Of a stretch of DNA of 64,000 nucleotides, positions 1,562 to 30,484 are shown one piece after another. Origin of the DNA: Candidatus Bathyarchaeota archaeon. GTDB taxonomy: Archaea > Thermoproteota > Bathyarchaeia > TCS64. A program made the position numbers and the translations under genes. The DNA lies in NCBI GenBank assembly GCA_963771885.1, contig CAVYVF010000002.1, positions 192,001 through 256,000 on the forward strand. The letters are read 5' to 3'. Positions within the stretch are counted from its first letter, which is position 1. Each line of letters starts with the position of its first letter. Below the pieces are notes generated by a model, which made no database searches, was not told the origin of the DNA, and worked only from the letters and a program-made list of their open reading frames with translations.

Positions 1562-1685
1562 GTGCTTGAGAGTCTCAGTGTTGTAAGCGCGAGAATATAG
1601 CCGAAAACACACATGCGTAGTGCTCCCTCATCTGTTTAGCTGAAAGTGTGGCTAATCTGAGTGTGTTGCCTTTTGTAGTGTTTAT

Positions 1686-1778
1686 GGGGCTTCATCAGCC
1701 CCGTCGCCATCGCCCCAAGGGGGCGGTGTAGGACTCGCGGCCTTGTGGTCAGAACCTAGCCGCAAGGCTATCGATGGC
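1686..1778. other. GC-rich multi-hairpin element, candidate structured RNA
   Basis: Hairpins GGGGCT-TCATC-AGCCCC, CATCGCCCC-AAG-GGGGCGGTG and TAGCC-GCAA-GGCTA; long-range pair GCCATCG/CGATGGC. Confidence 0.4.
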
Positions 1779-2235
1779 ATGTGAGTTTTTAAGATTCATG
1801 GATTCCAGATACTAATATTATGCTCACGCAACTCATTCACAGATCCCACACCCTTCGTAATTATGCATAAATCTTATCAATCCAAGATTGCACCTGCAAC
1901 TCTACCTTAACCGCTTCATCCCACAAGTTCCATGAAGGTTCTATGCCTAGGTATTGAGGAGATTGAGACTCCTACATTGAGGTCGCGCGCGCCACGAAGG
2001 CTAACCTCACTGAGGCCCTTGACCGAAATGAGGCGGCACTTGGAAGGCTAGACGTCTAAATCCGTAGACATTTGCGTTGACTATCTCCGCGCGCGTGTGT
2101 GCGATAATCGCATTAGCTCGGTAGTTGATATGGTTGATATTTCCTATTCGCATGCGCGCGCGCCCACTTTTCGAAAATATTCATAGAGTAAGCTAAATTC
2201 GAGAACATTCACAATTTAGGCTGTGTGAGTGAATT

Positions 2236-2709
2236 ATGGAACCTTATAAATTACCTAGGATGAGCGAGGCTGAGATTATTGAACTCGTTGACTCACAAAT
2301 GATTTGTCGTATAGCATTAAATGGTGAAGATTACCCTTATCTTGCGCCTTTCCGTTATGTGAAGCGGAATGACACATTATATTTTCACTTCACAGACTAT
2401 GGTAAAAAAATGCGCTTCCTTAAAAAGAGTAAAAAGGCGTGTGTCCAGATTGAAAAGTATAATTCGGATTTAAGTAACTACAGATTCGCTTCATTCCGCG
2501 GACAACTTGAAGAAGTAATGGATGAAAATGAGTATAAAGATATAATAATACTTTTTTCAGAGTCGGGTAAAGAGAGAATATCAACTAATTTCCTTGCCGC
2601 CCATGGGATAAAGCCCGAAGAGGGTTGGGAATCATTCAAATTTTCAAATAAGTATGTAATAATGAAACTTGTCGATATTGTTGAGAAGATTGGTTTAAAA
2701 TCCCCATAG
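2236..2709 (+). CDS. Pyridoxamine 5'-phosphate oxidase-like FMN-binding protein (NimA-like)
   Basis: ICRIAL...PYLAPFRYV...LYFH...GKKM pattern. Confidence 0.8.
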   Translation: MEPYKLPRMSEAEIIELVDSQMICRIALNGEDYPYLAPFRYVKRNDTLYFHFTDYGKKMRFLKKSKKACVQIEKYNSDLSNYRFASFRGQLEEVMDENEYKDIIILFSESGKERISTNFLAAHGIKPEEGWESFKFSNKYVIMKLVDIVEKIGLKSP

Positions 2710-2927
2710 ATCAGCAACCGCGTGCGTATGTTGTTATCCTTTTATTTCTTTCTTCGCACGCCATCTTGAGAAACTTATAGAACGCGTATGAACTATTTAG
2801 AATATTTATGGAGTGCGCGCTTCATTATGAATGGTGGAGACATAAGGAGTACACGCACCTTTATTCAAGGCAAGTATGCAAGACTGCATCTGTAAACAGA
2901 TTTAACGCTACTGATTATCCTATATTC

Positions 2928-4008
2928 ATGACGCATGCGTGTGGTCTAGATGAAGTCTCTACACGCCAATACCAAGAAGGCGACGACGAGGAGATCGTAG
3001 CTCTCTTAAAAGCCTCCTTTCCCTCCTGGAAAAAAAGAAAACAAGCAGTTGATTACTGGCGATGGAGATATGTACGATCACCTCTCAAAACCCACATCGC
3101 CATCTCAACAGTGAAAGGTCGAATTGCTGGCGTGGGGCATTGCATGCAGCTAAAGATCAAACTTGGTGAAAAAATAGTCATCTCTTGTTATGATGACGAC
3201 TATGCTACTTACCAGAAGTATCGAAAAATTGGCGTCTACAAGGCAGTGACCAACCTCACCGATTCCCTCAAGACTGGCGTTGGCGCTGACTTTTGTTACT
3301 GGATTACAACAAACCCAATCGTGTTGACGAAAGCGATGATACACCAGCAGGTAACTTTTCCGACTCCATTCTCCGACTTAGTCAGAATACGTGATGTTGA
3401 TCGTTTCCTAGAGAAGGTGCCCGTAGAGAACCCCCAGACCCTTAAAGTCGAATTCTCTAATGCACCTGCTCCAATTCGTAATATATGATGCTGAGAGAAA
3501 AATCGAGTTTCGTGACTTAGACTTATTTGATGAAGACTTTGATAGATTTTTTGAGAAGATTGTTAATGGCTACGACTACATTATGATGAGAAGTCATCAA
3601 TACATGAATTGGAGATTTACTCAGAATCCAGAGGCCGTGTATAAAATTAAGGCGGCCGAGTTAGACGGTAAGATCGTCGGCTATGTGGTTCTCGAATTTG
3701 AGGATTATAATGGATACTCAATTGGTTCGATATTTGATTTAATTACTTTTCAAGATCGCTATGACCTGGTTTATTCTATCTTTGAGGCGCTTGTAACCTT
3801 TTTTGATTCGACTGGTATTGAATGCATCAGTCTAACTACAATGCGGGGTCATTCCTACCACGAGGCCGCAACATCCCTTGGCTTCATTAACGCCACATAT
3901 GCCTCAGGCTCTCATGTTAGGTTTTGGGGATACAACGACCAATTTTATAAATCCCTTAATAGATTAAAACCAGACAGGATCTTTTTCTCCTATTCTGATT
4001 TCTATTGA
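2928..4008 (+). CDS. Tandem-domain GNAT acetyltransferase, split into two ORFs near 3480
   Basis: RQYQEGDDEEI...YWRWRY...YRKIG in the first ORF; RSHQYMNWRF...GKIVGYVV in the second. Confidence 0.7.
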
Positions 4009-4081
4009 TTACTCACAAATAGTCCATTTGAATAAATATTCACGCGTATTTTGAACCACTTCGCGCACAGCTGGCCTTTCT

Positions 4082-4528
4082 TTATTTGCTCTTGAGGATC
4101 TTCAGCGACTCGTTGATGTGTGCCTTCATGTCGGTCTGCGAACTGAAAATGTACCGGATCAAGCCATCCCTACTTATTATGAAGGTGGTCCTGCCCGGCA
4201 GAAGAAAGCCGGAAACGCCGTAGAGTTTAGCAACCTCGCCACCAGGATCACTGAGGAGAGTGTAGGGCAGGAGATTCGACTCAATGAACTTCTTATGCGA
4301 CTCCACGCTGTCAGCACTCACCCCAATCACCTCCGCTCCCGCCTCCGTGAAGTCCTCAAAGCTGTCTCGGAAGTGGCACGCTTCCCTGGTGCACCCCGGG
4401 GAGAAGTCCTTGGGATAGAAAAACAACACCACTTTTCTCCCCCTGAGGGAAGAGAGCGCAACAGACTTGCCATCCTGGTTATTAAGGGCGAAATCCGGCG
4501 CTTTGTCCCCCAGCCTGAGTTTAGCCAT
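4082..4528 (-). CDS. bcp: Peroxiredoxin, BCP/PrxQ type
   Basis: GDKAPDF, FYPKDFSPGCTREAC; likely start MAKLRLG at 4528. Confidence 0.9.
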   Translation of the reverse strand: MAKLRLGDKAPDFALNNQDGKSVALSSLRGRKVVLFFYPKDFSPGCTREACHFRDSFEDFTEAGAEVIGVSADSVESHKKFIESNLLPYTLLSDPGGEVAKLYGVSGFLLPGRTTFIISRDGLIRYIFSSQTDMKAHINESLKILKSK

Positions 4529-4862
4529 GTAACAGATTTGGGAACAGAAGATAAAAAAAGATCTGCGACAGAAGGGCAATCATCCATGCGTGAATGGTTT
4601 TTGATTCATTTTTGCGCGTGCAGCGCGCGTGCTCATTATTCAGAAAAGTAAGCCCCGGAAACGCTTGCCCTACCCCAGTCTTACCTCAAACTCATCCAGC
4701 CAAGACCTCACTATGACGTAGAAACGCTAGTGGAGATCGAGTTACCTATAACTGCGTCTATTTCAAGTAGTCACGCGCGCAAATGATATATACTCAGTTG
4801 ACAATCACCCATATAAGGTTCATCAATCACTAACTGATGAACCTTGAAAAATTGGGAAACTG

Positions 4863-5189
4863 GTGAAAAGAATGAAGTTTATAGCAGTTCACAAGTGGAC
4901 CAAAGAAACAAACATCGCATGCACGAAAGACATGGTAGCAGGTTTCACAGCCCTACTAAAGGGAGAGACCCCTAAAGACGTAATAATAGAAAACACCTGG
5001 ACAAGAGACGATTATGGCGCCTTCTGCTGTTGGGATGCGCCAAACAAAGAGGCTCTAACAAATCTGTTCAAGAAATGGCTGCCTACCATGTTGAAGTATA
5101 CCGAGTTTATCCCAGTCTCGCAGGCGTTCCCGGCGACTATCGAATATGAGCTTGGTTTACTCAAGATGATTACTGATATGGCAAAGTAG
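4863..5189 (+). CDS. Small hypothetical protein, DUF4242/DUF3303-like
   Basis: FIAVHKW...AFCCWDAPNKEAL; followed by a T/A run. Confidence 0.55.
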   Translation: MKRMKFIAVHKWTKETNIACTKDMVAGFTALLKGETPKDVIIENTWTRDDYGAFCCWDAPNKEALTNLFKKWLPTMLKYTEFIPVSQAFPATIEYELGLLKMITDMAK

Positions 5190-5377
5190 ACTACGTCATT
5201 CCCCTTTTTTTAAAAAAAAATATCCAAGTTTGCACACTTGAGTGAAAAAACGGTTATGATGTAATAGGATTCCAGATTTAATATGCTCCTATCACGCGCA
5301 CCTATGGGCACACACACGAGCATTACGCGTGTGAAAAGATGCGAAGTCTCATTATTCAAAACATATTTCTCTTAACC

Positions 5378-6613
5378 ATGAGGATCAAGGACGTCTACAC
5401 TTCCCCCGGGCTGACAGGCTACTTCTTCGACGATTTAGAAGCAATAAAACAAGGAGCCACATTAGATGGCGCAATATACAACGGAGCACCCGTAACACCC
5501 GGTTTTTCAAAGATAAGGCAACGAGGCGAATCCGTATCAATAATGCTCGAACTTGAAGATGGTAATATTGCCATAGGCGACTGCTCAGCGGTACAATACT
5601 CCGGAATAGCGGGTCGAGACCCAATATTCGCAGCCTCCAACCTAATAGACATAATAAATAATTTCCTTGCCCCAAGACTCACCGGCTTAGAACTAGATAA
5701 CTTTAAATCACTTTGCAACTGGGTCGATGAATTAGAATTATCGGGTAAGAAACTTCACACCGCGATTCGCTACGGCGCCACCCAAGCCCTATTGGACGCC
5801 TTCTCCAAATCGGAGAGTAAGACTATGGCAGAGGTAATTGCTGACTCCTACGGGCTCCAGATCTCACAAAAAATGATACCAATGTTCTCCCAGAGTGGAG
5901 GCGAAAGGTACTCAAACGTAGATAAAATGATCCTCAAGGGGGTAAAAGTCCTACCTCATGGCCTCATCAACAACCCAACACTCGTAGGACCCAATGGAAG
6001 AGGCCTCATCGAGTATGTAGAATGGGTCAAAGATCGCATTATAAAAATTGGTGGTGAGGATTACTCTGCAACTATTCTTCTCGGCGTTTATGGGACACTG
6101 GGCGGGGTCTTCAACAACCTCGAAACAGTGGCGCACTATATTTCTCAACTTGAGAAGACTGCTCATCCTTTTCCGCTATGGATAGAAACACCTATCTTGG
6201 CAGCGAATAAAAAAAGGCAAATCGAAGAATCGAAGTCCCTTAAAAACCATTTAGAGAAACTCGACTCAAAAGTCAAGATAGTTGCAGATGAATGGTGCAC
6301 TAGCCTTGACGATGTGAGAACTTTCTGCGACGAAAGCGCAGCCGATGTCATCAACATCATGACCCCACAATTTGGGACGATCGATAACGCTGTGGAGGCT
6401 GTGCTCTACTGTAAGAAAAGCGGAGTGGGTGCATACGTTGCAGGGTCATGTAATGAGACCGATATATCGGCCCGAGTATCAGCACATATCGCCCTTGCGA
6501 CTAACGCTGAATTAGTTGCAGCGAAGCCAGGAATGGGTGTTGATGAGGGGATCATGTTAGTTTATAATGAGATGCAGAGAGCCCTCGCGATGATAGCTAA
6601 ACATAGGAGATAA
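5378..6613 (+). CDS. Methylaspartate ammonia-lyase homolog with substituted active-site residues
   Basis: GDCSAVQYSG..GRDP, LHTAIRYG, LPHGL, VADEWC, CNETD, KPGMGVDEG. Confidence 0.85.
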   Translation: MRIKDVYTSPGLTGYFFDDLEAIKQGATLDGAIYNGAPVTPGFSKIRQRGESVSIMLELEDGNIAIGDCSAVQYSGIAGRDPIFAASNLIDIINNFLAPRLTGLELDNFKSLCNWVDELELSGKKLHTAIRYGATQALLDAFSKSESKTMAEVIADSYGLQISQKMIPMFSQSGGERYSNVDKMILKGVKVLPHGLINNPTLVGPNGRGLIEYVEWVKDRIIKIGGEDYSATILLGVYGTLGGVFNNLETVAHYISQLEKTAHPFPLWIETPILAANKKRQIEESKSLKNHLEKLDSKVKIVADEWCTSLDDVRTFCDESAADVINIMTPQFGTIDNAVEAVLYCKKSGVGAYVAGSCNETDISARVSAHIALATNAELVAAKPGMGVDEGIMLVYNEMQRALAMIAKHRR

Positions 6614-6777
6614 GGGATCTAAACACCGGTGCGCTTGTACGTTATATGAGGTTAATGCCAAAGAGACTTTGGTATAAGATTTCTCGAGAATAGCTAAGTG
6701 ATACTCTATTAGTAAGCGCTTATTCGAACAAATAGAACTTCCAACTATCCAAAAAATGTATCGTAAACGGGTTTTGA

Positions 6778-7155
6778 TCATTTAGGCGGAATACTTGAAG
6801 TCCAAATATCCCAGTGAAGCCTCCAGCCATCCGGAGTATTCTTCCAGACAACCACATACTTTCCCTTATCCTCAGCGGCTTGAAGCTTCAAATGGTATTC
6901 ACCCATCTCAGTAACAGTGTCCCCAGATCCGACGACCTCGACGGTCTTCAATATTGCATCCTTGAGCCCCATGCCCTTAATCGCTCCGCCCCAGAACTCC
7001 TCAATTGCTTTCCTCCCTTTGATGAAACTCATTCCGGCGGGCATTAGGCAGGCATCATTTGTATAAAGTCCAGATATCGCCTTTGCGTCGCTTCGCCTCA
7101 CAAACTCTCCGAATTTGCCGTTAGCTTTCTCGATCTCCTTCTTGATTTCAACCAT
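6778..7155 (-). CDS. NTF2-like/DUF4440 (SnoaL-like) protein
   Basis: YT.DACLMP...GRKAIEEFW...GKYVVVWK...DGWRL..DIW. Confidence 0.85.
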   Translation of the reverse strand: MVEIKKEIEKANGKFGEFVRRSDAKAISGLYTNDACLMPAGMSFIKGRKAIEEFWGGAIKGMGLKDAILKTVEVVGSGDTVTEMGEYHLKLQAAEDKGKYVVVWKNTPDGWRLHWDIWTSSIPPK

Positions 7156-7346
7156 TTTGTATTCATCTTCTCCTTGTTTCTCGATGAAGGGGGTAACAAG
7201 CGGGGGTGTACCCAATAATTGAAAACACCCTAGTTACTATATATTACTATCCGTTAACGCTTACCAATTAAGGGTTAAATCTAAACTCACCATAGGTGAA
7301 AATTTCATATAACAATATGAAGCTTCCAAAACACATCATGCACACG

Positions 7347-8057
7347 CTATTGGGAAACGAGATGGATTAGATTAGCTGCAACCCGCTCCGCGTATAGACG
7401 CATCTGAGCGTCATTGAGTTTACACTCGGCTAAAACCTGTTCAGGCGTCTTTCCTGCTACGGCAGTAGAGGCGCCCCACACTTCCAGCCAACTTCCGAGT
7501 TCACGACTATTCAGCTCAAAGCGGAACAAGAATCCTCGGATGTTGTTAAACCTGAATCCTTGAATATGGCAGGGTTCCCCCGTAGCCACGAGCTCTCCGT
7601 CCTTCGGTATTTCAAACATGTTTCCGTGCCAGAGGAAGGCTGTGAACTCTTGGGGTATGCCTTCAAGCAACGGGTCACGTATACCTGCCTCGGTGAGCTG
7701 TATCCGATAGCAACCCACCTCTTTGGGTGAGCTGTGAACATTAGCACCGAGCCTATACGCTAGGAATTGGGCACCGCCACATATCCCAAAGCAAGGCTTA
7801 CCGCTCAGCCGTATCTCATCGACGTAATCCCAGAGCTGCTGGAGGAAGTAGAACCGTGGCATCTCGTGGACATCGGGAGCCATCGCACTTAGAATAAAAG
7901 CGTCGAAGCCATCTATTGAGGGATATTTCTCCGGAGGCTGTAATCTATAAGCGTGGAAGATCGTTACCTCTGCTCCGAGGCCGCGAAGGATCTCCGGATA
8001 TATGCCCATAGACTCGATGGGGTCGATTTGAAGTACAAGAATGTGGGCTGGGTGCAT
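7347..8057 (-). CDS. Type 1 glutamine amidotransferase-like protein; catalytic His replaced
   Basis: FGICGGAQ nucleophile elbow; FRFE where the family has FHxE. Confidence 0.8.
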   Translation of the reverse strand: MHPAHILVLQIDPIESMGIYPEILRGLGAEVTIFHAYRLQPPEKYPSIDGFDAFILSAMAPDVHEMPRFYFLQQLWDYVDEIRLSGKPCFGICGGAQFLAYRLGANVHSSPKEVGCYRIQLTEAGIRDPLLEGIPQEFTAFLWHGNMFEIPKDGELVATGEPCHIQGFRFNNIRGFLFRFELNSRELGSWLEVWGASTAVAGKTPEQVLAECKLNDAQMRLYAERVAANLIHLVSQ

Positions 8058-8189
8058 AAAGTACCGGAGTCATTGAGAGTTGAAGATAGTAATAATGCTT
8101 ATTGGAGTTTAAGGAGTTAGCGCGCGTGGCTGGAAACAGGTTTCGATGGAACGCACACGGCCGCGCGTGCGTGGGATGAGTTCGTTAAA

Positions 8190-8204
8190 TGGTGGGATCG
8201 GTGA
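8190..8204 (-). repeat. att-like copy of the tRNA-Pro 3' end
   Basis: Identical to 11958-11972. Confidence 0.8.
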
Positions 8205-8282
8205 AGTCCACTCATTGGAGAGTCTATATTTTAAATAATAATGGGTTTATATGAAATATTGTTCATGTATTTTTTAAAAATG

Positions 8283-9743
8283 TTATGATACTCCCGCAAG
8301 TTTACACATATTCAAATAGCTTTCAAAAGCATACTCAACGTCCTTCTTTGTACTTCTATGATTAGTGAAACAAACCCTAAAGCCTTCAACCCCTCTCACC
8401 TTAGTCAATAGCCCTCCACATTCAAATAACTCAGGATGTGAATATACGATTGGCATGAGTTTAGCATTCTGAGCGATAGTCTCCTCCTCGCTCCACTCCG
8501 GTTTCTTGCAGCGGAAGACCACAACATTGAGAATAACGGGTGCAATCAGTTCAAGACCTGGTTGTTCCACCACTAGCTCAGCGTAATAATGAGCTAACTC
8601 AATATCTTTCTCAATCATTCGCCTGTATTTGTCGACCCCGTGCTCCTTGATACTCATCCATACTTTCAGGGCACGGAGTGGCCTGGAGAGCTCCATTCCT
8701 AGATCCATCATGCTAGGATCGTGTGAAATGTAATCTCCGTGCATCGAGAAAGCCTGATAGTGAGCCGCCTTATCCTTAACAAGAATACAACCAACCCCGT
8801 ATGGCATATACATCCACTTATGCAGGTCGAATGCCAGGCTATCCGCTCGCTCCATTCCCTTGACTAGATGCTTGTATTTTGGAGAGAGCGCAACCCAAGC
8901 TCCGAATGCCCCGTCTATGTGAAACCATAGATCCTGTTCTTGGCAGAAGTCAGCAATTGCGTCGAGGTCGTCGAAGCTGGCGACGTTTGTGGCACCAGCA
9001 CAGCCGATAACCCCGCAGGGAGTATATCCAGCCTTACGATCTTCTTTGACTTTCTCTTCTAGTTCATCGATGTTTATCTTGAAATCGTCATCCACTCGAA
9101 TTTTCCTAAGGTTCTTTGAACCAATTCCCATTACTTCAATTGCTCGCTGTATGCTTGTGTGCATCTCCTGGGAGCCATAGAAAGTAAGCTTGCTTGAGAT
9201 GCCATTTTCTTTGATGTTGCCTCCGGCTTTGACATTCCTAGCTACAATCAGGCCAGTTAGATTTGCGTGGCTGCAACCAGATACGAGTATTCCGGATGAG
9301 TCAGCGGGGTAGCCAAGCATCTCTTTCAGCCAGGATAAAACCTGTAATTCGATCTCCGGCCCTAGGTTGAAGCGGTTGTTTTCTGCTGCTATATTGTTTA
9401 GACCTGACATCCACATATCTGAGAGGGCGCCGAAGGGTGTTCCTTGCCCTAATACTGTATACCAGCATCTAGGAGAACCAAAATGAGGCGTATTGTTTTC
9501 TAGTATTATTTTCTGGAAATCGTCGTAGGTTTTTTCTGCTCCAAGGCCTTCATGAGGTACCTTAGTCTTGAGTTTGCTTAGGATTTCATCTGTGATGTAT
9601 TTGAATTGAGTTTTGGCTCTTATGGTTTCTTGATATGTTAGCATATCTTCGACCATTTGTCTCCCTAGTTTCTTCATCTCGTCCCAGTTTTCAGGGTCAA
9701 GTGTTTCTTCTTTCCGGACAGGCTCCTGTTTATTCTCGCTCAT
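8283..9743 (-). CDS. Group II PLP-dependent amino acid decarboxylase
   Basis: WFHIDGAFG, ADSLAFDLHKWMYMPYG. Confidence 0.9.
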   Translation of the reverse strand: MSENKQEPVRKEETLDPENWDEMKKLGRQMVEDMLTYQETIRAKTQFKYITDEILSKLKTKVPHEGLGAEKTYDDFQKIILENNTPHFGSPRCWYTVLGQGTPFGALSDMWMSGLNNIAAENNRFNLGPEIELQVLSWLKEMLGYPADSSGILVSGCSHANLTGLIVARNVKAGGNIKENGISSKLTFYGSQEMHTSIQRAIEVMGIGSKNLRKIRVDDDFKINIDELEEKVKEDRKAGYTPCGVIGCAGATNVASFDDLDAIADFCQEQDLWFHIDGAFGAWVALSPKYKHLVKGMERADSLAFDLHKWMYMPYGVGCILVKDKAAHYQAFSMHGDYISHDPSMMDLGMELSRPLRALKVWMSIKEHGVDKYRRMIEKDIELAHYYAELVVEQPGLELIAPVILNVVVFRCKKPEWSEEETIAQNAKLMPIVYSHPELFECGGLLTKVRGVEGFRVCFTNHRSTKKDVEYAFESYLNMCKLAGVS

Positions 9744-10363
9744 TTAACACACCTTGGTTGTCGTAGCATGAAGGTCAGTACTGGTCCGTTGGAGCCGAAT
9801 TGCTTAGTCTTTAGAACCTTGAATCCATGGCGCTCGTAGAGAGACGTGTTCACAGGATTTGAGTTTTCTAAATAAGTAGGGATTCTTGTTTCGTCAAACT
9901 TTTTTAATTTATACTTGAGTAGACCTGAACCTAGTCCTCTACCCTGATAGTTTGGGTCCACAGCGATGTATTCGAGGTAACCATGGGGGATGCTTGGCCG
10001 ATTCTCGACAAACGATTGAATCACCTCATTGAACCTATCTACCCTCGCCTCAGTCGTCCATCTCAATATCCTTGGACCGAGAGCCTCAAAGTTCTCAGGT
10101 GATACATCAAGCAGACCCTTACCCGGAGGAAACCATAAGGCGCAGGCCTTCAGATCCTTCGTTGAGTGCACTTCACCCTCGGAATAGGCAATATCGAGAC
10201 AAAATGTGAACAAGTCTCTTAGAGCAGACATCTTTAATCGGTCATCTCGGGTCATCCAACTGACACCGGGATCCGTTTTGAAAGCACGAGCCAGGGTTTC
10301 TGCAAGCTTAGCCGAGTCCCGGGGAGAGGCCGTGAATATCTCTGGATTGCTTGTACTCTGCAT
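9740..10363 (-). CDS. GNAT N-acetyltransferase (puromycin acetyltransferase-like)
   Basis: YLEYIAVDPNYQGRGLGS...YLENSNPVN..LYERHGF. Confidence 0.9.
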   Translation of the reverse strand: MQSTSNPEIFTASPRDSAKLAETLARAFKTDPGVSWMTRDDRLKMSALRDLFTFCLDIAYSEGEVHSTKDLKACALWFPPGKGLLDVSPENFEALGPRILRWTTEARVDRFNEVIQSFVENRPSIPHGYLEYIAVDPNYQGRGLGSGLLKYKLKKFDETRIPTYLENSNPVNTSLYERHGFKVLKTKQFGSNGPVLTFMLRQPRCVK

Positions 10364-10372
10364 TTTCCCACC

Positions 10373-13274: not shown

Positions 13275-13277
13275 GCC

Positions 13278-19767: not shown

Positions 19768-19778
19768 ACCTTTCCAAG

Positions 19779-20945: not shown

Positions 20946-21117
20946 CCCTGGGTCACTTAGGGATAGTTTGAGGAATTATTGGTACGTTGTAGCGTGTTTC
21001 GCGCGCGCATGCGCTTTAATCGTCTGAATTTTTAGGCTCACATCGAGTATAATAAAGGGCATGTGCTAAAACACACTGAAGTGGATAAAACCCACTTTAT
21101 CACTGGAGTGAAGAGAC

Positions 21118-21327: not shown

Positions 21328-21396
21328 GTAATCTAATTTTTACGCATAAGAGGCAGCTAGATTTCGTTACTCAATTATCCTAACGTCGGTGTCACT

Positions 21397-21894
21397 TTAT
21401 GCTCTCCAAATTCTACAATTTAGGTACTTTTTCTTAGAATATGTCAGGTACCATGACTCACTTCTCTTCTTATCTACGGCGACCTGTATTCTCCTAGCCA
21501 AAAAATCGTAGTGAGCCAGCGATGCATCTTTTCTAACATAGTCGTCGATACCAACGGAAAACGCTTCTTTGGCAACTTCATCACCACCGCGACTCGTATA
21601 GAGTATGTATGGAATATCTTGTTCCCTAATCGTCGAGTGGAGCTGAATTCCGTTCATCTCTGGCATGGCATAGTCGGAGACTACGCAGTCTGGTCGGTGA
21701 GTTTGAAGATGAGTTATTGCTTCAGCGGGGCTTTGTGTTGCAGTCACCTTAATTCTCGGATCGCTGTTTTCAAGATTTAGTTTCGCGAGGGCAAGCTGAT
21801 CTGTTTCATCATCAACCATGAGAACACGAATGTCTTTATCTAAATTATTTTGTTTGATATTGTTTAAGGGTTGAGTATTGCGAAGAGAAATCAT
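21397..21894 (-). CDS. Response-regulator receiver domain protein, possibly truncated
   Basis: VLMVDDE, DCVVSDYAMPEMNG, YILYT, DDYVRK. Confidence 0.85.
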   Translation of the reverse strand: MISLRNTQPLNNIKQNNLDKDIRVLMVDDETDQLALAKLNLENSDPRIKVTATQSPAEAITHLQTHRPDCVVSDYAMPEMNGIQLHSTIREQDIPYILYTSRGGDEVAKEAFSVGIDDYVRKDASLAHYDFLARRIQVAVDKKRSESWYLTYSKKKYLNCRIWRA

Positions 21895-22124
21895 GATTTT
21901 TCTTAGGGAAGCGTGTTATAAGAACTCCTTTCTTTTGCGCACAATTTTTGAAATTATTAAAGTAAGGGTTTATCTTTATGGATTTTCATAAAACTATGCT
22001 AAAGGAACGCCATACTCCCTTAGCCTCCGTAGTAGGGGCCGAAGAGGCCCCGAATACTCACGCCAACTATCACGAAACTGCAAGTAAATTGTTTAAAATC
22101 GGTTAGTTTGCCTTATGCGCGCGC

Positions 22125-22174
22125 ATGGCATACATTTAAAATTATTTTTTTAGGGTGGGCACTATTTTGGGGTG
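22125..22174 (-). repeat. About 50-bp imperfect repeat, copy 2
   Basis: ATGGCATACATTTAA...GGGCACTATTTTGGGGTG. Confidence 0.55.
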
Positions 22175-22276
22175 TTTTGGCGGGCGCAAATGATTAATCT
22201 CTTGAGAAATGGCTGACGTTGTGCGCACACACAAGGATCTGGGGAAGTTGAAATATTGATATTATTATGATTCATC

Positions 22277-22798
22277 CTATTTCTTCGAATTCTTTAGACG
22301 AACCTCTTTCACCTCATCAGGCAACTTTACCTCAATAAAACCCTCAAGCATCATACACACAATATCCTGAATCTGGGTTTCAGATCTCATCGGATAAATA
22401 ACATGAACAAGTTCTTCGATAAAAGAACCGCATAGATTTATGAGGAAATCTACGGATGTATCGCTCCAATGGTCTAAAACGTTGATGTGAACATTGAATC
22501 CCTCGCTTGTTCTCACAACCACTGCTCTTCTATCGGGCTTCTTCCCGAAACACTCTTCCAGTTTTCTAATCAGATCATCCCATTCCTCTTGGCGATAATA
22601 GTAGCTTACCTTTATTTCTGGAAACGTGAATTTCTGCTCTCTATCTAAATATTCTAGAGTATCGGTGAAGACTGTACCCATAAATGTCACTAATTGGTCG
22701 GGTGTGTCAAAGTTCTGGAACTTGTCCAGGTATTTCTCAATTCTGCCTCCTTTAGGCGGTGATGGTATTTCAATTGTCCTATGATCAAAGGGAGGCAT
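22277..22798 (-). CDS. Hypothetical protein with EELVH (zincin-like) motif
   Basis: 173-aa ORF containing FIEELVH. Confidence 0.55.
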   Translation of the reverse strand: MPPFDHRTIEIPSPPKGGRIEKYLDKFQNFDTPDQLVTFMGTVFTDTLEYLDREQKFTFPEIKVSYYYRQEEWDDLIRKLEECFGKKPDRRAVVVRTSEGFNVHINVLDHWSDTSVDFLINLCGSFIEELVHVIYPMRSETQIQDIVCMMLEGFIEVKLPDEVKEVRLKNSKK

Positions 22799-22996
22799 GT
22801 TGATGAGAAAGCGATGGTGGTTAAAGAACTGGGAGGCAACTCGCTAATTGGCGTGCGTAGCTAATACGGTTCTCTCTATTTACGCACGTGCAGTTGCATT
22901 CTCGATACTTGACTACTGCTGAGGAAAGCCAAAGTAAAGAAAACCGCAGACAACCACTTTAAAGCGAGCCGCACGCAGGGTTTCCAAGTTTAGCGC

Positions 22997-23896
22997 TTAA
23001 CAGATCTCTTCTAAGGATAACTTGGATACACTTACCACTGTATCCGCAGCCCCGTAGGAGATCAAGATATCGTTCCCGCGACGAATCGCGCCACAGCTGA
23101 ATACGACATTTGGAATGAACCCATTACATTCATAGTCCGTTTGTGGCTCGAAGATTGGCTCAAGAGATCTATACAATATCTTCTCAGGGTTGCCCTTCTC
23201 AAGCAATAGTGCGCCCAGTCTATAGACCCTGTTCTGGTCTACGCCGTGGTATATCTGCAACCACCCCTCATCAAGTTCAATCGGTGGCCCGGCTATTCCA
23301 ACTCTTAAGCAGTCCCAGCTGTTTTCCCTTGGAGTCATAACGATCTTCGAATTATTCCAGTTTTGCATATCATCTGAGTAGGCGATACATAGGTTGGGGT
23401 CTATTCTATGAAAAAGTACGGACTTTCCACCAATCTTTACTGGGAACAATGCACTGTTTTTGTTAGTGATATTTGGGAATGGGTATATCCTCTCTTCCCA
23501 ATCCCAATTTTTCGCCATTAGATCCCTGGACTTTATTGAGGTAATCCCGATCTGTGCCGTTTGCGCGTAGGCTGTATACGTCATATAACACCGATCCTCC
23601 ACTATTGTCACCCGAGGGTCCTCAACGCCCCTAATCTCTGAGGGATTTTTAGGTTCAAAAACTGGATAATCCAGCCGCTCATCAATGTGTTGGCCATCGA
23701 GAGAGGATGCATAACCCAGTCGGGAGACCATGTCATTCCCCATAGCTCTATATAAAAAGTGAACCCTGCCTCCGAGCTCGAACATCGCAGGGTTGAAGAC
23801 AAGCTTGGACTCCCAGCTATGTTCAGGGATCGGTTTCAGTATGGGATTGCCCTCGAAACGTGAAGCGACATAACGTTTAGTTTGATATTCCATCAA
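22997..23896 (-). CDS. GH130-family glycosidase/mannoside phosphorylase
   Basis: GNPIL, VFNPA, GVEDPRV, NKNSALFP, YHGV, NVVFSCG, YGAAD. Confidence 0.9.
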   Translation of the reverse strand: MMEYQTKRYVASRFEGNPILKPIPEHSWESKLVFNPAMFELGGRVHFLYRAMGNDMVSRLGYASSLDGQHIDERLDYPVFEPKNPSEIRGVEDPRVTIVEDRCYMTYTAYAQTAQIGITSIKSRDLMAKNWDWEERIYPFPNITNKNSALFPVKIGGKSVLFHRIDPNLCIAYSDDMQNWNNSKIVMTPRENSWDCLRVGIAGPPIELDEGWLQIYHGVDQNRVYRLGALLLEKGNPEKILYRSLEPIFEPQTDYECNGFIPNVVFSCGAIRRGNDILISYGAADTVVSVSKLSLEEIC

Positions 23897-24058
23897 GACT
23901 TACAGAACTCCTAATATGTATCCAGTTAATAAAACCCTGGGACAATTGGTTCTAACATGAATCATCGCTCTTATATAAATTGACTCAACGCACTTGTAGA
24001 CACTAGTTTTTGAAGCAAATAAAAAAGGTGTTAATACAAAGATGTATTAAAGTTACTT

Positions 24059-25663
24059 ATGGATAAAGCGAATACATACTTTAAAACCCTCTTCGACTTA
24101 CCGGTTTTAAACAGCACCGATTTAGAGCCTCCCACGATTTCTCAAGTCGAATCAGTCTCAAGACTGATTGATCTGCTGGTTACCCACGAAACAGGCGCGG
24201 TGATTGTGACAGAAGGCGAAAAACCCGTTGGCATAGTAACTGAAAAGGACATTGTTGAAAGGGTTCTAGGCCGCGGGAGAGACCTCGAAAGCACTCGGGT
24301 CGAAGAAATCATGTCCTCTCCCTTTGTATGTATAGAGTCTAATAAGTCGGTTAAAGAGGCCATTGAACTATTAAGGGAGAAAAATATCCAAAAACTAGGC
24401 GTAGTAGAAAAAGGGAAACTGATAGGTCTGACGACTGAGAGGAGGCTGCTTAACCTTGCACACGACACATACCTGGATGGAATCCAGGAAAGAGACGTAG
24501 ACGAAATCTATACCCCAAACGACAAACCCATCATTGCCTACCTAAGCACTTATCCTCCTCGCGAATGTGGAATCGCGACATTCACCTATGATTTAGTCGA
24601 CTCCATAAACCGCCAAGGCGCCCTATCTCCCCCCATGATTATCGCCATAAATGATGAGGGCGAATACTATGACTACCCCAACGAAGTCAAGTTACAGGTA
24701 GAAAGAGATGAGCGAGAGAGCTACAGAGCCGTGGCATCAAGGATCAACAACTCCGGCATCAATGCGGTGAATATTCAACACGAATATGGCCTGTTTGGCG
24801 GGTCCTGGGGAGATTACCTCCTGACATTCGCGGAAGAGTTGAAGAAGCCCCTAATCACAACCCTCCACACCATACTCCCGGAGCCTAACACGGATGCGGA
24901 GCGGGTTCTAAAAGAAATCATGGGATTTAGCGACAGGATAATAGTCTTGGCCAAAGCGGGATCCAAAATTTTAATCGAGCGCTACGGTGTCCCGACGGAA
25001 AAGATAAGATACATTCCACATGGCTGTCCAAATGTTCCCTTCATTAAAAGCAAAACACCCAAGATTGGTCTAGGGCTTAAGAATCGGTACATACTATCCA
25101 CTTTTGGACTCATCAGCAGTGGAAAGGGAATAGAGTACGCAATCAAAGCTATGCCCGAGATAATCTCGGCTGAACCACGAGTGCTCTACATCATAATCGG
25201 TGAGACGCATCCAGAAGTGAGGAAACATGAGGGCGAATCCTATCGACAATCATTATACGATTTGGTGGATTCTCTCGACATTGAACAGAATGTAAGATTT
25301 GTCAACCGTTTCCTAAATAAAATCGACCTGATCAGGTTTCTGCAGGCAACGGACACATATGTTCTACCCTATCCGAATAGGGACCAGATAAGCAGCGGTA
25401 CAATGCTCTACGCGCTATGTACCGGAAAAGCCATAGTAACAACCCCCTTTCTACACGCAGAGGAGGTTATAGATCAGGGAGCTGCCCTACGATGCGAGTT
25501 TAAAGACCCTCACTCAATCGCTGAATGCGTAAACACCCTCATCAAAGATGACGCAATGAAGGCGAAGTTTGAGAGAAGGGCATATGAAACTAGCCGCGAA
25601 ATGATCTGGCCTAGCGTCGCCATGAAATACATCAACGAATTCTACAAGGACCTCGGAATGTGA
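24059..25663 (+). CDS. CBS-pair domain fused to a GT4 glycosyltransferase
   Basis: PVGIVTEKDI CBS pair, then STYPPRECGIATFT, QHEYGLFGG, IPHG, GKGIE, SSGT. Confidence 0.88.
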   Translation: MDKANTYFKTLFDLPVLNSTDLEPPTISQVESVSRLIDLLVTHETGAVIVTEGEKPVGIVTEKDIVERVLGRGRDLESTRVEEIMSSPFVCIESNKSVKEAIELLREKNIQKLGVVEKGKLIGLTTERRLLNLAHDTYLDGIQERDVDEIYTPNDKPIIAYLSTYPPRECGIATFTYDLVDSINRQGALSPPMIIAINDEGEYYDYPNEVKLQVERDERESYRAVASRINNSGINAVNIQHEYGLFGGSWGDYLLTFAEELKKPLITTLHTILPEPNTDAERVLKEIMGFSDRIIVLAKAGSKILIERYGVPTEKIRYIPHGCPNVPFIKSKTPKIGLGLKNRYILSTFGLISSGKGIEYAIKAMPEIISAEPRVLYIIIGETHPEVRKHEGESYRQSLYDLVDSLDIEQNVRFVNRFLNKIDLIRFLQATDTYVLPYPNRDQISSGTMLYALCTGKAIVTTPFLHAEEVIDQGAALRCEFKDPHSIAECVNTLIKDDAMKAKFERRAYETSREMIWPSVAMKYINEFYKDLGM

Positions 25664-25667
25664 CAAA

Positions 25668-26702
25668 ATTTGGACTGAACTAAACAGACTGAGTGGACTC
25701 CGACTCTTCACAGATGAAATGGGCATACTTCAACACTCAATGTTCGGCGTAATCGACAGAAGACATGGATACACGACAGATGACAACGCCAGGGCCCTCG
25801 TGGCCTCAGTGCGCTTTCATAATAGATTCGGCGGAGAGGAAGCCACTCACCTTGCCAAGAGATACCTCGAATTTCTCCTCTACATGCACATAAATGGGGG
25901 CGGACTTCACAACCGTGTCCAATACGATAAGCAGTATCTGGACGAGGTAGGAACCGAAGACAGCATCGGTCAAGCACTTTGGGCAACGGGCAGCGCATTG
26001 AATTCAAGTCTGCCCCTATCTCTGAAACAGTTATCGAAGTGGCTATTTAATGAAAGCCTACCCATTGCCCGGGGTTTCACCTCCCCGAGGGCGAAGGCTT
26101 TCACCCTTCTCGGTTTATGTGAATACTCACGGGCTTACCCCGACGATGAAAATCTACTAAAGGACTTGAACCAATTTTCGGATTTTCTGGTTCAGAAATA
26201 TTTCGATGCAATGTCGCCCGAGTGGCAGTGGTTCGAGCCATACATAACATATGCGAACGCCAGAATACCCCAAGCACTTATCGAATCTTATCAAATCCTG
26301 AAAAACCCGCGGCATCTTCAAGTAGCAAAAAAAACCCTCGACTTTCTAATCGACTTGCAGTTTGAAAACGGGATCTTCATTCCAATAGGAACAGATGGAT
26401 GGTATCACAAAGGGAAACAAAAAGCGGTTTATGATCAACAACCCATAGAATCTGCCTGCATGACCGAAGCTGCCTTTTTAGCTGCAGAGATCTTTGACGA
26501 CGAAAAATATGGACAGAGAGGGCACGAAGCTTTCCTATGGTTTAAGGGAAAAAACATATCTCGGCTGGCACTAGTTGATACAAATGACTACACCTGTTAC
26601 GATGGCTTGACTCCTAAGGGTGTGAATCAAAATAAAGGTGCTGAGTCATTGATCTCATATCTCTTAGCTGAATTATCTCTGCCCAGTTCTAAGGGCCCTT
26701 AA
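25668..26702 (+). CDS. Glycosidase-like alpha/alpha-barrel protein, the usual partner of this GT4 type; start uncertain
   Basis: TDEMGILQHS, GYTTDDNARAL, WFE.YITY.NA, DQQPIE, CYDGL, NQNKGAES; frame open upstream of the ATG at 25719. Confidence 0.8.
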   Translation: MWTELNRLSGLRLFTDEMGILQHSMFGVIDRRHGYTTDDNARALVASVRFHNRFGGEEATHLAKRYLEFLLYMHINGGGLHNRVQYDKQYLDEVGTEDSIGQALWATGSALNSSLPLSLKQLSKWLFNESLPIARGFTSPRAKAFTLLGLCEYSRAYPDDENLLKDLNQFSDFLVQKYFDAMSPEWQWFEPYITYANARIPQALIESYQILKNPRHLQVAKKTLDFLIDLQFENGIFIPIGTDGWYHKGKQKAVYDQQPIESACMTEAAFLAAEIFDDEKYGQRGHEAFLWFKGKNISRLALVDTNDYTCYDGLTPKGVNQNKGAESLISYLLAELSLPSSKGP

Positions 26703-26780
26703 TGAGTGCGCACATAAGGCCTATTTATATGCACATTTTTATCTCAGATTTCCGCGGAAATGAGGAGTCTTAAAAAGATT

Positions 26781-27431
26781 TTATTGCGTGGCCTGCGTCG
26801 TCGAGTTTCCTCTAAGGAAAAGCGCCAACACAAACCCAGCCACAAACCCGCCAATATGAGCCATATAGGCTACGCCGCCCGTTTCCGCCGAATTGGCGAT
26901 TGAGCCGATGCCGCTGAAGAACTGAAGAACGATCCAGAGCCCTATCACAATCAAGGCAGGTACCTGAGTCACAACTCGACCCTGCAACACCCTCACCTTT
27001 CCCTGAGGGAACAACAAGACATACGCGCCAAGCACCCCCGCTATCGCCCCTGAAGCCCCCAGATTCGGGATATCTGACCCTAGACTAAACGCTAGCTGAG
27101 CAAACGTCGCCCCCAATCCGCAGATCAGATAGAAGACTGTGAACTTGACGCTTCCGAAGCGGTCTTCCACATTGTCGCCGAAGATCCATAGGTAGAGCAT
27201 GTTTCCCCCGAGGTGAACCCACCCCGCGTGCATGAACATTGATGTGAGGAGCGTCATTGAATCGCCGATAGGGTCGGCTAGGAAGCGGCTGGGGATGAAG
27301 GCCCACTTAATGATGAAGGCGTCTCCCCCACTCAGTTCAACGAAGAAAAATAGGACGTTCAGGGCGATTAATGCATATGTAACGAGTGGAACGGTTTTAC
27401 GGGCGCTGTCATCGTCGCCGATAGGCATCAT
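26781..27431 (-). CDS. Rhomboid intramembrane protease
   Basis: SMFMHAGWVHLGGNM, GASGA, AHIGG. Confidence 0.93.
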   Translation of the reverse strand: MMPIGDDDSARKTVPLVTYALIALNVLFFFVELSGGDAFIIKWAFIPSRFLADPIGDSMTLLTSMFMHAGWVHLGGNMLYLWIFGDNVEDRFGSVKFTVFYLICGLGATFAQLAFSLGSDIPNLGASGAIAGVLGAYVLLFPQGKVRVLQGRVVTQVPALIVIGLWIVLQFFSGIGSIANSAETGGVAYMAHIGGFVAGFVLALFLRGNSTTQATQ

Positions 27432-27699
27432 AGAGAATCAATTGTTTGTTTGTAAGCTTAGTTAATAGAGGTTCTTTCCTTCTAGCGCATAAAGTAATTG
27501 CAGCCTCTGTATGGTGATAAAGCGCGCCTCCCGGTACTCGGTGGACACGCGCATTATTTTGGGGGCCAGGGTCTGGATCAGGTCTAGGGCTTGGCATTGG
27601 ATCCGGGGTTGGATTGGGGTTAGGATCTGGGGTCGGGTTGGGCGTGGGGTCGGGTGTATTCGGATTAGGGTTAGGATTTGGTTTCAGATCTGGACACAT
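27409..27699 (-). CDS. Possible Pro/Asn/Asp-rich low-complexity peptide
   Basis: (PN/PD/PT)n encoded by degenerate hexamers at about 27560-27685; purine-rich SD-like sequence upstream. Confidence 0.4.
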   Translation of the reverse strand: MCPDLKPNPNPNPNTPDPTPNPTPDPNPNPTPDPMPSPRPDPDPGPQNNARVHRVPGGALYHHTEAAITLCARRKEPLLTKLTNKQLILYDAYRRR

Positions 27700-28113
27700 A
27701 TCTTATCCTTCCCTATACTAACTTGTTCAAAAACATGGGTGCGCGTGCGGAGTATGGCGTTCCATTAGCAATAATTTATGAAAACCCATGAAGGCAAACC
27801 CTTACCATCGCGAGCGAATGAAGTGGAAAAACGGCTCGCGTCGTTTCTCATGAAAGCGCCCCTAGCTTTCGATTGAATGAGTGACCAGCTCTGTGCATAT
27901 CCTTTAGGGATGCTGAGATGCGCGCGCGGTCTCGGACCAGGACTTTATTATTGTCGAATGGCTCTGGAGGCGCATGGAGGGCGAATAGATTTTACTTCCA
28001 AGCTTGGGCAGGGAACAACCTTCATAATAATAATACCCATTGAATAAATCGCCCTGTGCACAAGTAACACTAGTTTATATCGTTTCATTCCAATAGATCA
28101 TATAGCGGATTAA

Positions 28114-29034
28114 ATGTATCAAAATAGTATGATTTCTGTCGTTGTACCCGCTTATAATGAAGAGTTACTCATAGAGCAAACTTTAGAATCGATACCAGAT
28201 TACATCGATAAAATATATGCAGTTGACGATGGATCATATGATGACACCTATAATATAATTAAAAAAACATCGATTAAAGATAATAGAATAATTCCATTAA
28301 AACATGAGATAAATAAAGGGGTTGGTGCAGCGATTATTACCGGGTATAAAAAAAGTGTAGATGATAACGTTGACGTAGCTGTAGTCATGGCGGGAGATTA
28401 TCAGATGGATCAAACTCAAATACCCAAATTAATCGAACCAATTATAGAAGGAAATGCGGATTATACCAAGGGAAATAGATTAACGAATAATACCGATATG
28501 AAAGGTATGAGTATATTTAGACGGTTTGGAAACGAGTTATTATCTATACTCACAAAAATCTCGTCAGGTTATTATGATATTATGGATCCTCAAAACGGCT
28601 ATGCGGCGATTTCTAGACAGGCACTTACTACCATCGAGTTAGATGAGATCTATCCAAAATATGGATACTGTAACGATATTTTAGTAAAGTTAAACGTATT
28701 TGATCTTAGGGTGAAGGATGTCCCTATACCGGCTCGATACGGTTCAGAAAAATCAAAGATAAAATATGGGAGATATATAATGAATGTCTCCTGGTTGCTT
28801 TTCGGAAATTTTTTGTACAGACTAAAGATGAAGTACATCTATCAGGATCTAAGTCTGATTCCTTTTCTTTTTATATTTGGTGCTTTATTAATGCCTCTTG
28901 GAATGTTCTCTATGTTTTATAATAACTTCACATTGTTTTCAAATGCGTTTTCTTTACCTATTATTATCCTAAGTATACTATTTGTTTTAATTGCATTAAT
29001 GCTTGATATTAAAAATAGCAGAAATATTCACTAG
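28114..29034 (+). CDS. GT2 glycosyltransferase (DPM1-like) with C-terminal TM helices
   Basis: VVVPAYNEE, VDDGS, NKGVGAA, DPQNGY; markedly AT-rich. Confidence 0.9.
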   Translation: MYQNSMISVVVPAYNEELLIEQTLESIPDYIDKIYAVDDGSYDDTYNIIKKTSIKDNRIIPLKHEINKGVGAAIITGYKKSVDDNVDVAVVMAGDYQMDQTQIPKLIEPIIEGNADYTKGNRLTNNTDMKGMSIFRRFGNELLSILTKISSGYYDIMDPQNGYAAISRQALTTIELDEIYPKYGYCNDILVKLNVFDLRVKDVPIPARYGSEKSKIKYGRYIMNVSWLLFGNFLYRLKMKYIYQDLSLIPFLFIFGALLMPLGMFSMFYNNFTLFSNAFSLPIIILSILFVLIALMLDIKNSRNIH

Positions 29035-29061
29035 CACATGCAAATCGCCTCGTGTGAAATT

Positions 29062-29583
29062 TTATATCGGTACCTCACTTACAGTAAAGACCAATTCAGC
29101 GAGTTTGGCAGCCTCTCTGGTGAAGTCCTCCTCACCCAGATCGATCCAATTTGGACCGGTAATTACTCCCCTTAGATAAATGGTCGTGACAAACCTAGAC
29201 CCCCTCTCCACAACCTTACTCCGCAGCTTATCAACGGCTTTGGGGTTTGTTTCGTCGGCACCAACTAATCCCAAGATAACTCGTTTTCCGCGGAGATCGA
29301 TCTGTTCAAGGAATTCAATCATGGATGACGGAGGTTTCCCCTTCGATACGGCTGTTAGTAATATTATAGGGTCAAATTCAACAATAGCCGCGTTGGCTTT
29401 TGTTAGTTCTTCTTCTGCATGCGAATAGCGTCTGATCCTTAGCTTGTCTCTCCAGTCTCCGGGCTCAACTATTTTTCTGCTTTCGGCTTTGATTGTTGGT
29501 AGAACGATCTCCGCTATCTTGGCTGTTCTGCCTGTTTTGCTATAATAGAAGATGAGGGGCTGTAGAATTATGGTGCTCGACAA
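29062..29583 (-). CDS. Flavodoxin-like protein
   Basis: IFYYSKTGRTAKIA phosphate-binding loop. Confidence 0.7.
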   Translation of the reverse strand: MSSTIILQPLIFYYSKTGRTAKIAEIVLPTIKAESRKIVEPGDWRDKLRIRRYSHAEEELTKANAAIVEFDPIILLTAVSKGKPPSSMIEFLEQIDLRGKRVILGLVGADETNPKAVDKLRSKVVERGSRFVTTIYLRGVITGPNWIDLGEEDFTREAAKLAELVFTVSEVPI

Positions 29584-29730
29584 AGTTTAATCCCATAAAT
29601 TATCTTTGAACCTTTTTTAATAAATGTTAACCCATTTTACGCGGGAATTTTTTCGTATTTTCACATAAATTCCTGTGTGCGATTAGCCAGCTCAATTTCC
29701 TTCATTTATTAGCAGCGGTATTTCGCGCGC

Positions 29731-29884
29731 GACGAAGTAGAGGGAAGAGGAAAGAAAATCAAGGGACAGATCCGTGAAGAGATAGGTAAGATTTCGGATA
29801 ATAAAACGGAACCTCAAAGGAAAGATCGAGCAAGTCGAGGGAAAAGTGCAAGTCGAGAAAATCAAGAGAAGGGTCAAAGAATAG
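29731..29884 (+). pseudogene. CsbD-family stress protein remnant
   Basis: DEVEGRGKKIKGQIREEIGKISDNKTE, frameshift, LKGKIEQVEGKVQ...*; no start codon; begins right after CGCGCGC. Confidence 0.6.
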
Positions 29885-29990
29885 AACCCTTCAATCGCCA
29901 TTCCGCTCGATTAGCATGCGCGCGCGCTCACAAATAGATAAAGGTAAAACAGAGGAGAACGAGATCATGCGCCTAAATGAGATATGGGTG

Positions 29991-30356
29991 CTAGAAGCTT
30001 ATTACGGCGTCAGCCTCTAGGAGAAGATCATTGAGTGTTGCCGCACCTACGATACCAGCGTCGCTCACAAAGCTACCCCTAGGAAGATTAAACAGCATAC
30101 AGCTCTGCTCACAAACCATAAGCTTCACACCGGCTTTAACCGCTTGATCCATGACCTCCTTCAGGCTCGGAAATCCCCCGATCTTTATCTTCTCGGCCTC
30201 ACCGGTTTTTACCACTGTAATTCCCTTTATTATGAAGTAGATTGTGGCTTCTATGCTCATGGCCGCGGCTGTTGAACCGAGGATGAAAGGTGCGTAAAGT
30301 CTCTCGGGTGTGTCTATTCCGCTTGTTTGGACGTAGAGTATCTTCTTCTTTACCAT
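29991..30356 (-). CDS. DsrE/F-like protein
   Basis: PERLYAPF, GVKLMVCEQS, IVGAATL. Confidence 0.85.
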   Translation of the reverse strand: MVKKKILYVQTSGIDTPERLYAPFILGSTAAAMSIEATIYFIIKGITVVKTGEAEKIKIGGFPSLKEVMDQAVKAGVKLMVCEQSCMLFNLPRGSFVSDAGIVGAATLNDLLLEADAVISF

Positions 30357-30484
30357 GTTTATCGTTTAGGAATACGAGGTTATATTGATATACCGAGATT
30401 CTTGGGTGAATGCTTTTTTAATGGTTGAATTCTACGCGCGAGCGAATAAAAACAGTATTTATACTGTTGAATGCGGTCAGAAGT

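Follow-up and report, generated by a model that had tools for sequence, protein, structure and literature searches.

Alternating purine-pyrimidine tracts in a Bathyarchaeia genome as probable filler DNA at rejoined breaks

What has placed short runs of alternating purines and pyrimidines between the small, unrelated genes that adjoin two tRNA genes of a Bathyarchaeia archaeon? The question arises from a stretch of 64,000 nucleotides of Candidatus Bathyarchaeota archaeon (assembly GCA_963771885.1, contig CAVYVF010000002.1, here C2:192001-256000 and termed the window), which belongs to a genome (G000) of 2.46 Mb in 23 contigs that is 92% complete and 6.7% contaminated. A sequence-only reading of the window had proposed that these tracts could be junction scars, recombination sites of a cassette system or Z-DNA-prone breakage hotspots. 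The comparisons described below suggest that they are mostly new DNA written at rejoined breaks, that is, filler DNA from the joining of two unrelated ends during deletions, insertions or the capture of foreign fragments, a reading to which we assign a probability of roughly three in four.

All 18 of the quoted tracts that were tested were found in place (one shifted by a single base, to 22881), as were two groups listed without their sequences, at 5293-5333 and 8120-8173. The 23 accessory spacers (6,020 bp, 42% GC) hold 20 alternating runs of at least 10 nt and at least 50% GC, a count reached by none of 300 dinucleotide shuffles (2.2 ± 1.5 runs), whereas the 28 core spacers (4,810 bp, 51% GC) hold two against 1.9 expected and display no excess, in keeping with the by-eye impression that tracts are much rarer there. 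That almost every accessory spacer carries a tract was an overstatement, as runs of at least 8 and 10 nt occur in 16 and 12 of the 23, respectively (core: 4 and 2 of 28). Similarly, the proposed tRNA linkage holds in so far as both low-GC blocks (~1.6-12.0 kb and ~17.8-30.5 kb) adjoin a tRNA gene, tRNA-Pro and tRNA-Gln, but the trait itself is not bound to tRNAs. Both blocks contain small unrelated genes, which are found singly and scattered among the 17 congeners searched. Across the genome, for which spacers and coding DNA were delimited with a purpose-made caller of open reading frames (ORFs), runs of at least 12 nt and at least 55% GC exceed the shuffled expectation 13.8-fold in spacers of low-GC genes, 8.8-fold in mixed spacers and 2.6-fold in spacers of high-GC genes, while coding DNA shows no excess (0.6-0.9-fold); the enrichment over shuffled DNA is genome-wide. 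Additionally, GCGCGCGC and CGCGCGCG rank top among spacer 8-mers, after poly-A.

The tracts might alternatively be regulatory or chromatin signals (protein-binding sites or terminators), and they are mildly in excess right after stop codons and within short convergent spacers. They keep, however, no fixed distance to start or stop codons, they are not conserved, and fillers occur inside broken genes, where they cause frameshifts. An assembly artefact is hard to reconcile with the presence of tracts in independent runs and many unrelated assemblies; furthermore, the tract at 21000 is spanned by contigs of two other studies (X2 and X3) with 3-4 differences, and is thus not an artefact of the present assembly. 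We regard a signal or an artefact as very improbable.

The position of the tracts relative to breaks in homology was assessed by comparing G000 with its own duplicate segments of 88-97% identity (a second strain or recent duplicates) and with its closest relative, G003, of which 81 of ~170 contigs (734 kb, some only to 20 kb) were covered. The first set comprised 257 alignment ends, taken from 41 of the G003 contigs and from loci of other congeners; here tract coverage was ~2% inside the alignments, 9% just outside and 2-4% further out, and runs of at least 10 nt touched 31 breaks, 28 of them in one copy and three in both copies. A clean set of 81 ends was obtained by removing those that still aligned after a small shift; a long poly-T then poly-A run (G000:C1:86304-86749), probably an assembly artefact, was excluded from the counts. 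At 13 of these 81 ends (11 distinct joints) a GC-rich alternating run begins at the first unmatched base, in every case in one copy only, while control offsets of 40-200 bp gave 1, 3, 2, 3 and 0 runs. In agreement with the expectation that breakpoints of gene gain and loss fall on tracts, 18 of 98 spacers with a synteny break bear a tract, compared to 16 of 332 conserved spacers.

Within the window, the tract at 27918 lies at one end of a 1.7-kb block, a 94% copy of which on contig C11 has its own tract at the opposite end. Homology to the unit at 4780-5214 starts at 4779-4781 in five relatives, and the three relatives read there are without the tract. A 92% match in G005 starts at 5335, beside a similar tract of its own, and ends at 6634 within a longer tract. 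Some breaks are without a tract, such as that of G003 at 20901, ~100 bp from the nearest one. As a separate observation, G003 contains a 261-bp fragment flanked by alternating tracts (L056:8866-9126), the G000 copy having neither; it looks like a captured piece.

The one-copy pattern also bears on the proposal that the tracts serve a site-specific recombinase as target or attachment sites for the accretion of cassettes, as in integrons. In keeping with such a system, tracts bound small gene units of mixed orientation situated beside tRNA genes. Against it, the runs are variable, unconserved and present in one copy only (13 one-copy against 0 two-copy cases at the 81 breaks), no flanking consensus was found by inspection, and tracts also lie inside broken genes. 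No match to a tyrosine (PF00589) or serine (PF00239) recombinase was found in the 92%-complete G000. A search for excised circles in four read sets, which were contigs of relatives with a depth too low to be informative, returned no joint at a tract. Tyrosine recombinases occur irrespective of the trait: they are present in 189 of the 251 genomes of the class and in 14 of 14 controls, without a link to the trait by inspection of the 251, and were not found in the tract-rich genomes G011, G021, G143 and G206. This is the least probable of the explanations considered, and the claim of a cassette system is not upheld.

Where the ancestral state can be read, the tracts prove to be additions. Filler is present at 33 of 44 indel joints; in fillers of 3-14 nt (n=17), 83 of 106 steps alternate, compared to 115 of 212 in the ancestral ends that they replaced (p=3e-5). 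At these joints the ancestral ends are unrelated, with no long homology, and the extra bases belong to neither parent end. At five joints the affected gene is intact in G000, which fixes the direction of change as deletion plus filler in G003, and four of the five carry pure (CG)n in G003, the fifth filler being imperfect. In these four Pfam-positive genes (MFS_1, ATC_hydrolase, PadR and YgbA_NO), the G003 copies are short of 34-222 bp and have 4-11 nt of pure (CG)n in exchange. The same is seen in the window at CsbD, whose truncation at a tract had been noticed in the sequence-only reading: ~20 bp including the start codon have been replaced by (CG)n, while the upstream and coding DNA align to G012 and G007, whose intact copies have the ATG and no tract at the site corresponding to 29724. 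The first 28 codons match Pfam CsbD at E=3e-5, and the intact G012 copy at E=2e-13. Alternating fillers of 4-13 nt and ~90% G+C thus occupy the precise joint positions, where the ancestral sequence has none (in the 13 young runs, the GC content is 90% and 92 of 109 steps are GC or CG), and the suggestion of junction scars is supported.

These polarised cases are decisive for the third proposal, in which pre-existing, Z-DNA-prone tracts act as breakage hotspots that attract rearrangements. Alternating G-C is the classic Z-forming sequence according to the available text of PMC4060949, at 3 of the 31 tract-bearing breaks a tract is found in both partners, and one GCGCGC-to-GCGCGC indel was seen in another family. 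However, since the ancestral alleles of the in-gene deletions and of CsbD lack a tract, the hotspot reading fails wherever polarity is known, and it leaves the origin of the tracts unexplained. As an origin it is refuted; a secondary effect may hold, as older tracts are sometimes shared. Overall, we consider it improbable.

Once written, the fillers appear to age without constraint. Tracts inherited by G000 and G003 are 92.2% identical (273/296), compared to 93.8% (6466/6897) for spacers, and are therefore not better conserved; they differ mainly by G>A and C>T, a direction that is biased by the selection of GC-rich tracts in G000. Long spacer tracts are generally rich in CA/TG and AC/GT steps, while young fillers are 90% GC. 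It may be inferred that (GC)n decays neutrally into mixed purine-pyrimidine tracts.

The spread of the trait was explored by scoring the alternating pattern against a composition-matched control in the 251 class genomes, of which 38, in seven families, were tract-rich, 179 tract-poor and 34 in neither class. The score is crude and misses GC-rich carriers, G000 (67 vs 31) and G003 (29 vs 28) themselves falling in neither class, and the tract-poor class includes false negatives such as G010, whose score was 0 although 20 kb of it contain two tracts. In three other families, loci of 35-42% GC bear pure runs as long as (GC)7-8, most of them outside long ORFs, where the run density is 0.7-1.8 per kb against 0.1-0.2 (in regions chosen around known matches). 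Pure GC cores of low-GC genomes in other families begin with G at 64 of 80, 30 of 34 and 27 of 32 ends, on both strands. An 18-base signature gave 76 matches across 185,579 GTDB genomes, including 29 in records labelled Bathyarchaeota/Bathyarchaeia, 4 unnamed Thermoproteota and 1 Thaumarchaeota, the rest being scattered single records, nearly all bacterial. Such alternating patterns are generally suppressed in prokaryotes, as stated in the accessible part of PMC4060949, and a survey (10.64898/2025.12.30.697008) reports them as mildly enriched in archaea, its available text making no mention of Bathyarchaeia.

A possible source of filler in the home genus is the LigD polymerase encoded by the resident Ku operon, in which case tracts in Ku-lacking families would be relics or have another cause. 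G000 encodes a complete non-homologous end joining (NHEJ) operon on C23 (L024:6513-10792), consisting of LigD-Pol, Ku and a ligase-phosphoesterase fusion followed by a PRK10302-like hypothetical gene, with the ligD_pol, Ku_bact, NHEJ ligase and PE domains all exceeding their NCBIfam cut-offs, and Ku is present in 12 of 15 congeners. Among the 61 Ku-bearing genomes of the class, however, are 10 of the 38 tract-rich and 43 of the 179 tract-poor ones (p=0.84, with related genomes not independent and genomes incomplete), leaving 28 tract-rich genomes without Ku; LigD-Pol follows Ku and has no link to the trait. Ku was found in none of 11 genomes of family f27 (five extra ones among them), where tracts are pure and dense, while in the Ku-bearing family f26 none of 31 genomes is tract-rich. 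Ku and LigD seem not to be required, and the LigD explanation is unlikely.

How, then, might a break acquire such a filler? From the structure of the joints, the event would start with a double-strand break, whose free 3' ends a polymerase or primase may extend with alternating G and C, G first, or C after a terminal G. As (GC)n is self-complementary, any pair of tailed ends can anneal, and could be ligated without homology. Fillers would survive mainly outside genes and accumulate in regions of frequent gene gain and loss, and old ones may sometimes be reused as microhomology. A native terminal G or C is continued by its complement at 11 of 11 such ends, a rule partly inflated because the alignment absorbs filler bases; this in-phase start and the G-first cores fit tailing, and G-first cores on both strands are as expected from two G-first tails. 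The main rival to tailing is stuttering, in which a chance GC or CG dinucleotide lets the ends pair and a polymerase of repair or replication then slips repeatedly, copying this seed into (GC)n, a templated process that would leave the same scars. The in-phase continuation of 11 of the 13 young runs from a native G or C, and the CG or GC at the native end of several joints, are as stuttering would have it, whereas a GC seed is missing from both ends of some joints (T and A ends at C10:22657; C2:329064; C23:742237). Nor is there a matching excess of (AT)n, the ATAT-core pattern being mostly coding (10 of 17), and loci of only 35-42% GC still have (GC)7. Stuttering is, on balance, doubtful, if somewhat more plausible than the LigD explanation.

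Several observations weigh against the filler reading or against tailing, beside the inflation of the in-phase rule. Two of the 13 young runs come after T, and cores in G000 start with G at only 146 of 264 ends. Only 7 of 17 fillers alternate fully and 11 of the 44 indel joints are blunt or microhomologous, so that other joining routes operate too. The joint evidence in the window covers a minority of its tracts, namely those with homologues compared. An excess of palindromes or hairpins was not seen, the tract value being reached by 89 of 500 phase-preserving shuffles. In the Ku-lacking pair G144 and G266 a run was present at 5 of 36 breaks compared to 3 of 36 control offsets, which makes the case for fillers in Ku-lacking lineages anecdotal and based on a few joints, and for G106 no close relative for such a joint test was found among 10 genomes. 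Finally, among the candidates profiled over the 251 class genomes no enzyme tracks the trait. We put forward tentatively, at somewhat below even odds, that several Bathyarchaeia families possess a Ku-independent form of end joining, with a polymerase that needs no external template and synthesises strictly alternating (GC)n tails beginning with G. Such tails would serve as universal sticky ends that allow arbitrary fragments of DNA to be linked, and the accessory genome would be assembled one gene at a time, with no need of integrases.

As to the enzyme, our guess is a core enzyme with terminal-transfer activity, with PriSL as the first candidate. Besides PriS, G000 encodes PolB1, a PHP-fused PolX and, next to a RadA-like gene, a PolB2-like polymerase (these last two labels are a reading of the sequences). 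PolX (22 of 38 tract-rich against 52 of 179 tract-poor genomes) and the PolB2-like polymerase (17 of 38 against 39 of 179) were rejected as filler enzymes, since their weak link to the trait vanishes within the home family; PolX was not found in 16 of the 38 tract-rich genomes, and outside the home family 10 of 22 have neither. No match to a reverse transcriptase (PF00078), of which divergent forms could escape, or to DinB was obtained in G000, and a TFB search of viral contigs gave no match. At the loci L126:3979-7074 and L125:6005-7540, the PolB2-like gene follows the RadA-like gene and is divergent from PCNA. Its open frame is 551 aa in G000 compared to 724 in G003, and PolB1 also begins mid-protein; assembly errors may have introduced frameshifts into both, or the two genes may be truly broken. 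An additional three PolX copies, all shortened, lie in a repeated 5.2-kb low-GC block (L127:5054-6271, C17 and C18), with a Cdc6 gene near on C17; the block is possibly contamination or a mobile block.

The features of the window are collected in Table 1. Further elements were observed there. A non-coding element of ~100 bp (21944-22060) has further copies at C2:169957, at C2:174699 and in several congeners, with a partial one at 27749-27805, and a 50-bp non-coding stretch (6634-6682) is shared at 82-94% with several congeners at unrelated sites. The interval 27545-27740, between two tracts, encodes a proline-rich fragment of low complexity that has a weak Pfam match of PARP-like type, probably the remnant of a captured gene. 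A tandem pair of PLP-dependent decarboxylase genes with a GNAT gene in between occupies 8283-11845. Elsewhere in the composition of G000, GGCC occurs far less often than expected (z = -86 in coding DNA and -25 in spacers), which suggests past restriction pressure.

Table 1. Tracts and associated features of the window (window coordinates).
Feature	Position	Strand	Basis or remark
(CG)n filler in place of ~20 bp with the CsbD start codon	29724..29730	.	G012 and G007 intact: ATG, no tract
CsbD-like pseudogene, start codon lost, further small deletions	29731..29883	+	Pfam CsbD and alignment
Alternating filler edging 1.7-kb block (27927-29635)	27918..27926	.	C11 copy without tract here
Tract edging 57-bp partial copy (27749-27805) of element near 21962-22018	27739..27749	.	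coordinates only
Tract at 5' edge of promoter-plus-gene unit 4780-5214	4772..4781	.	homology start in five relatives
Three tracts, left edge of methylaspartate ammonia-lyase unit	5293..5333	.	G005 match
Short GTGCGC, right edge of methylaspartate ammonia-lyase unit	6629..6634	.	G005 match
Older tract after CsbD, same place in G012	29914..29927	.	alignment
Tract spanned by contigs of two other studies	21000..21014	.	~100 bp from G003 break at 20901
Inherited tract common to G003	30433..30440	.	homologue comparison
Tracts at 1607, 1984, 2088, 2149 within one 700-bp spacer	1607..2163	.	position only
Tracts at 2719, 2782, 2849, 2931	2719..2943	.	position only
Double tract upstream of peroxiredoxin gene	4613..4632	.	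position only
Tract overlapping GATase gene stop codon	7337..7347	.	G007 match stops here; gene end = joint position
Three tracts	8120..8173	.	closest break (G007, 8090) 30 bp off
Tracts at 22114, 22220, 22851, 22881 around gene 22277-22798	22114..22892	.	position only
Tracts at 26706 and 27545 flanking rhomboid gene	26706..27554	.	position only
Low-GC accessory block, ends at tRNA-Pro; genes single and scattered in congeners	1562..11957	.	comparison
tRNA-Pro(GGG)	11958..12034	-	
Low-GC accessory block, ends at tRNA-Gln; ~20.9-30.0 kb absent here in G003	17827..30484	.	
tRNA-Gln(CTG)	30485..30560	-	

The finding bears on how Ku-less archaea join ends and on how Bathyarchaeia acquire single genes without mobile elements. 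A fixed, readable scar would allow joints to be counted, polarised and roughly dated by decay from sequence data alone. If the proposal holds, there should further be an enzyme whose product is new, namely a self-complementary tail of programmed sequence, which could be useful for adaptor-free DNA end joining. In practice, the tracts should not be taken for regulatory motifs or selected Z-DNA.

End joining with filler DNA is of a known kind, while a fixed alternating filler that is apparently independent of Ku is undescribed in the literature searched, most subscription journals and supplements being outside the scope of the search. Integron attC arrays likewise string together small, unrelated genes with short structured sites in between; G000 differs in its mixed gene orientation, in sites that are unconserved and also lie inside broken genes, and in that no integrase was found. 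Extra bases at repair joints are also known from eukaryotes, where the N-nucleotides of TdT are G/C-rich and the insertions of Pol theta self- or trans-templated, but these are random or flank-copied rather than strictly alternating, and the PolX of G000, as noted above, is PHP-fused and patchy among tract-rich genomes. Prokaryotic NHEJ by Ku and LigD joins unrelated ends, as here, and usually adds one or a few nucleotides. The LigD polymerase domain is an AEP nucleotidyltransferase, for which alternating fillers of 4-13 nt go unmentioned in the available text (PMC8656161), and the trait tracks neither Ku nor LigD-Pol. Alternation enforced without a nucleic-acid template has a precedent in DRT3b, which performs protein-templated poly(dC-dA) synthesis; according to the accessible part of the source, this is a bacterial antiphage reverse transcriptase that makes long free DNA (PMC13174585), unlike the short GC product inside joints of a genome without a PF00078 match. 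The primase SsoPriSL tails 3' ends, and anneals and bridges non-complementary ends in vitro, working best on dC runs and preferring rNTPs; it has been proposed for Ku-less archaeal repair, a (GC)n product being unmentioned in the available text (PMC3333859). As a universal enzyme it would leave the patchy distribution of the trait unexplained, but its terminal transfer and its polymerization across discontinuous templates resemble what the joints described here would require, and the PriS gene of G000 makes it, by analogy, a candidate for this role.

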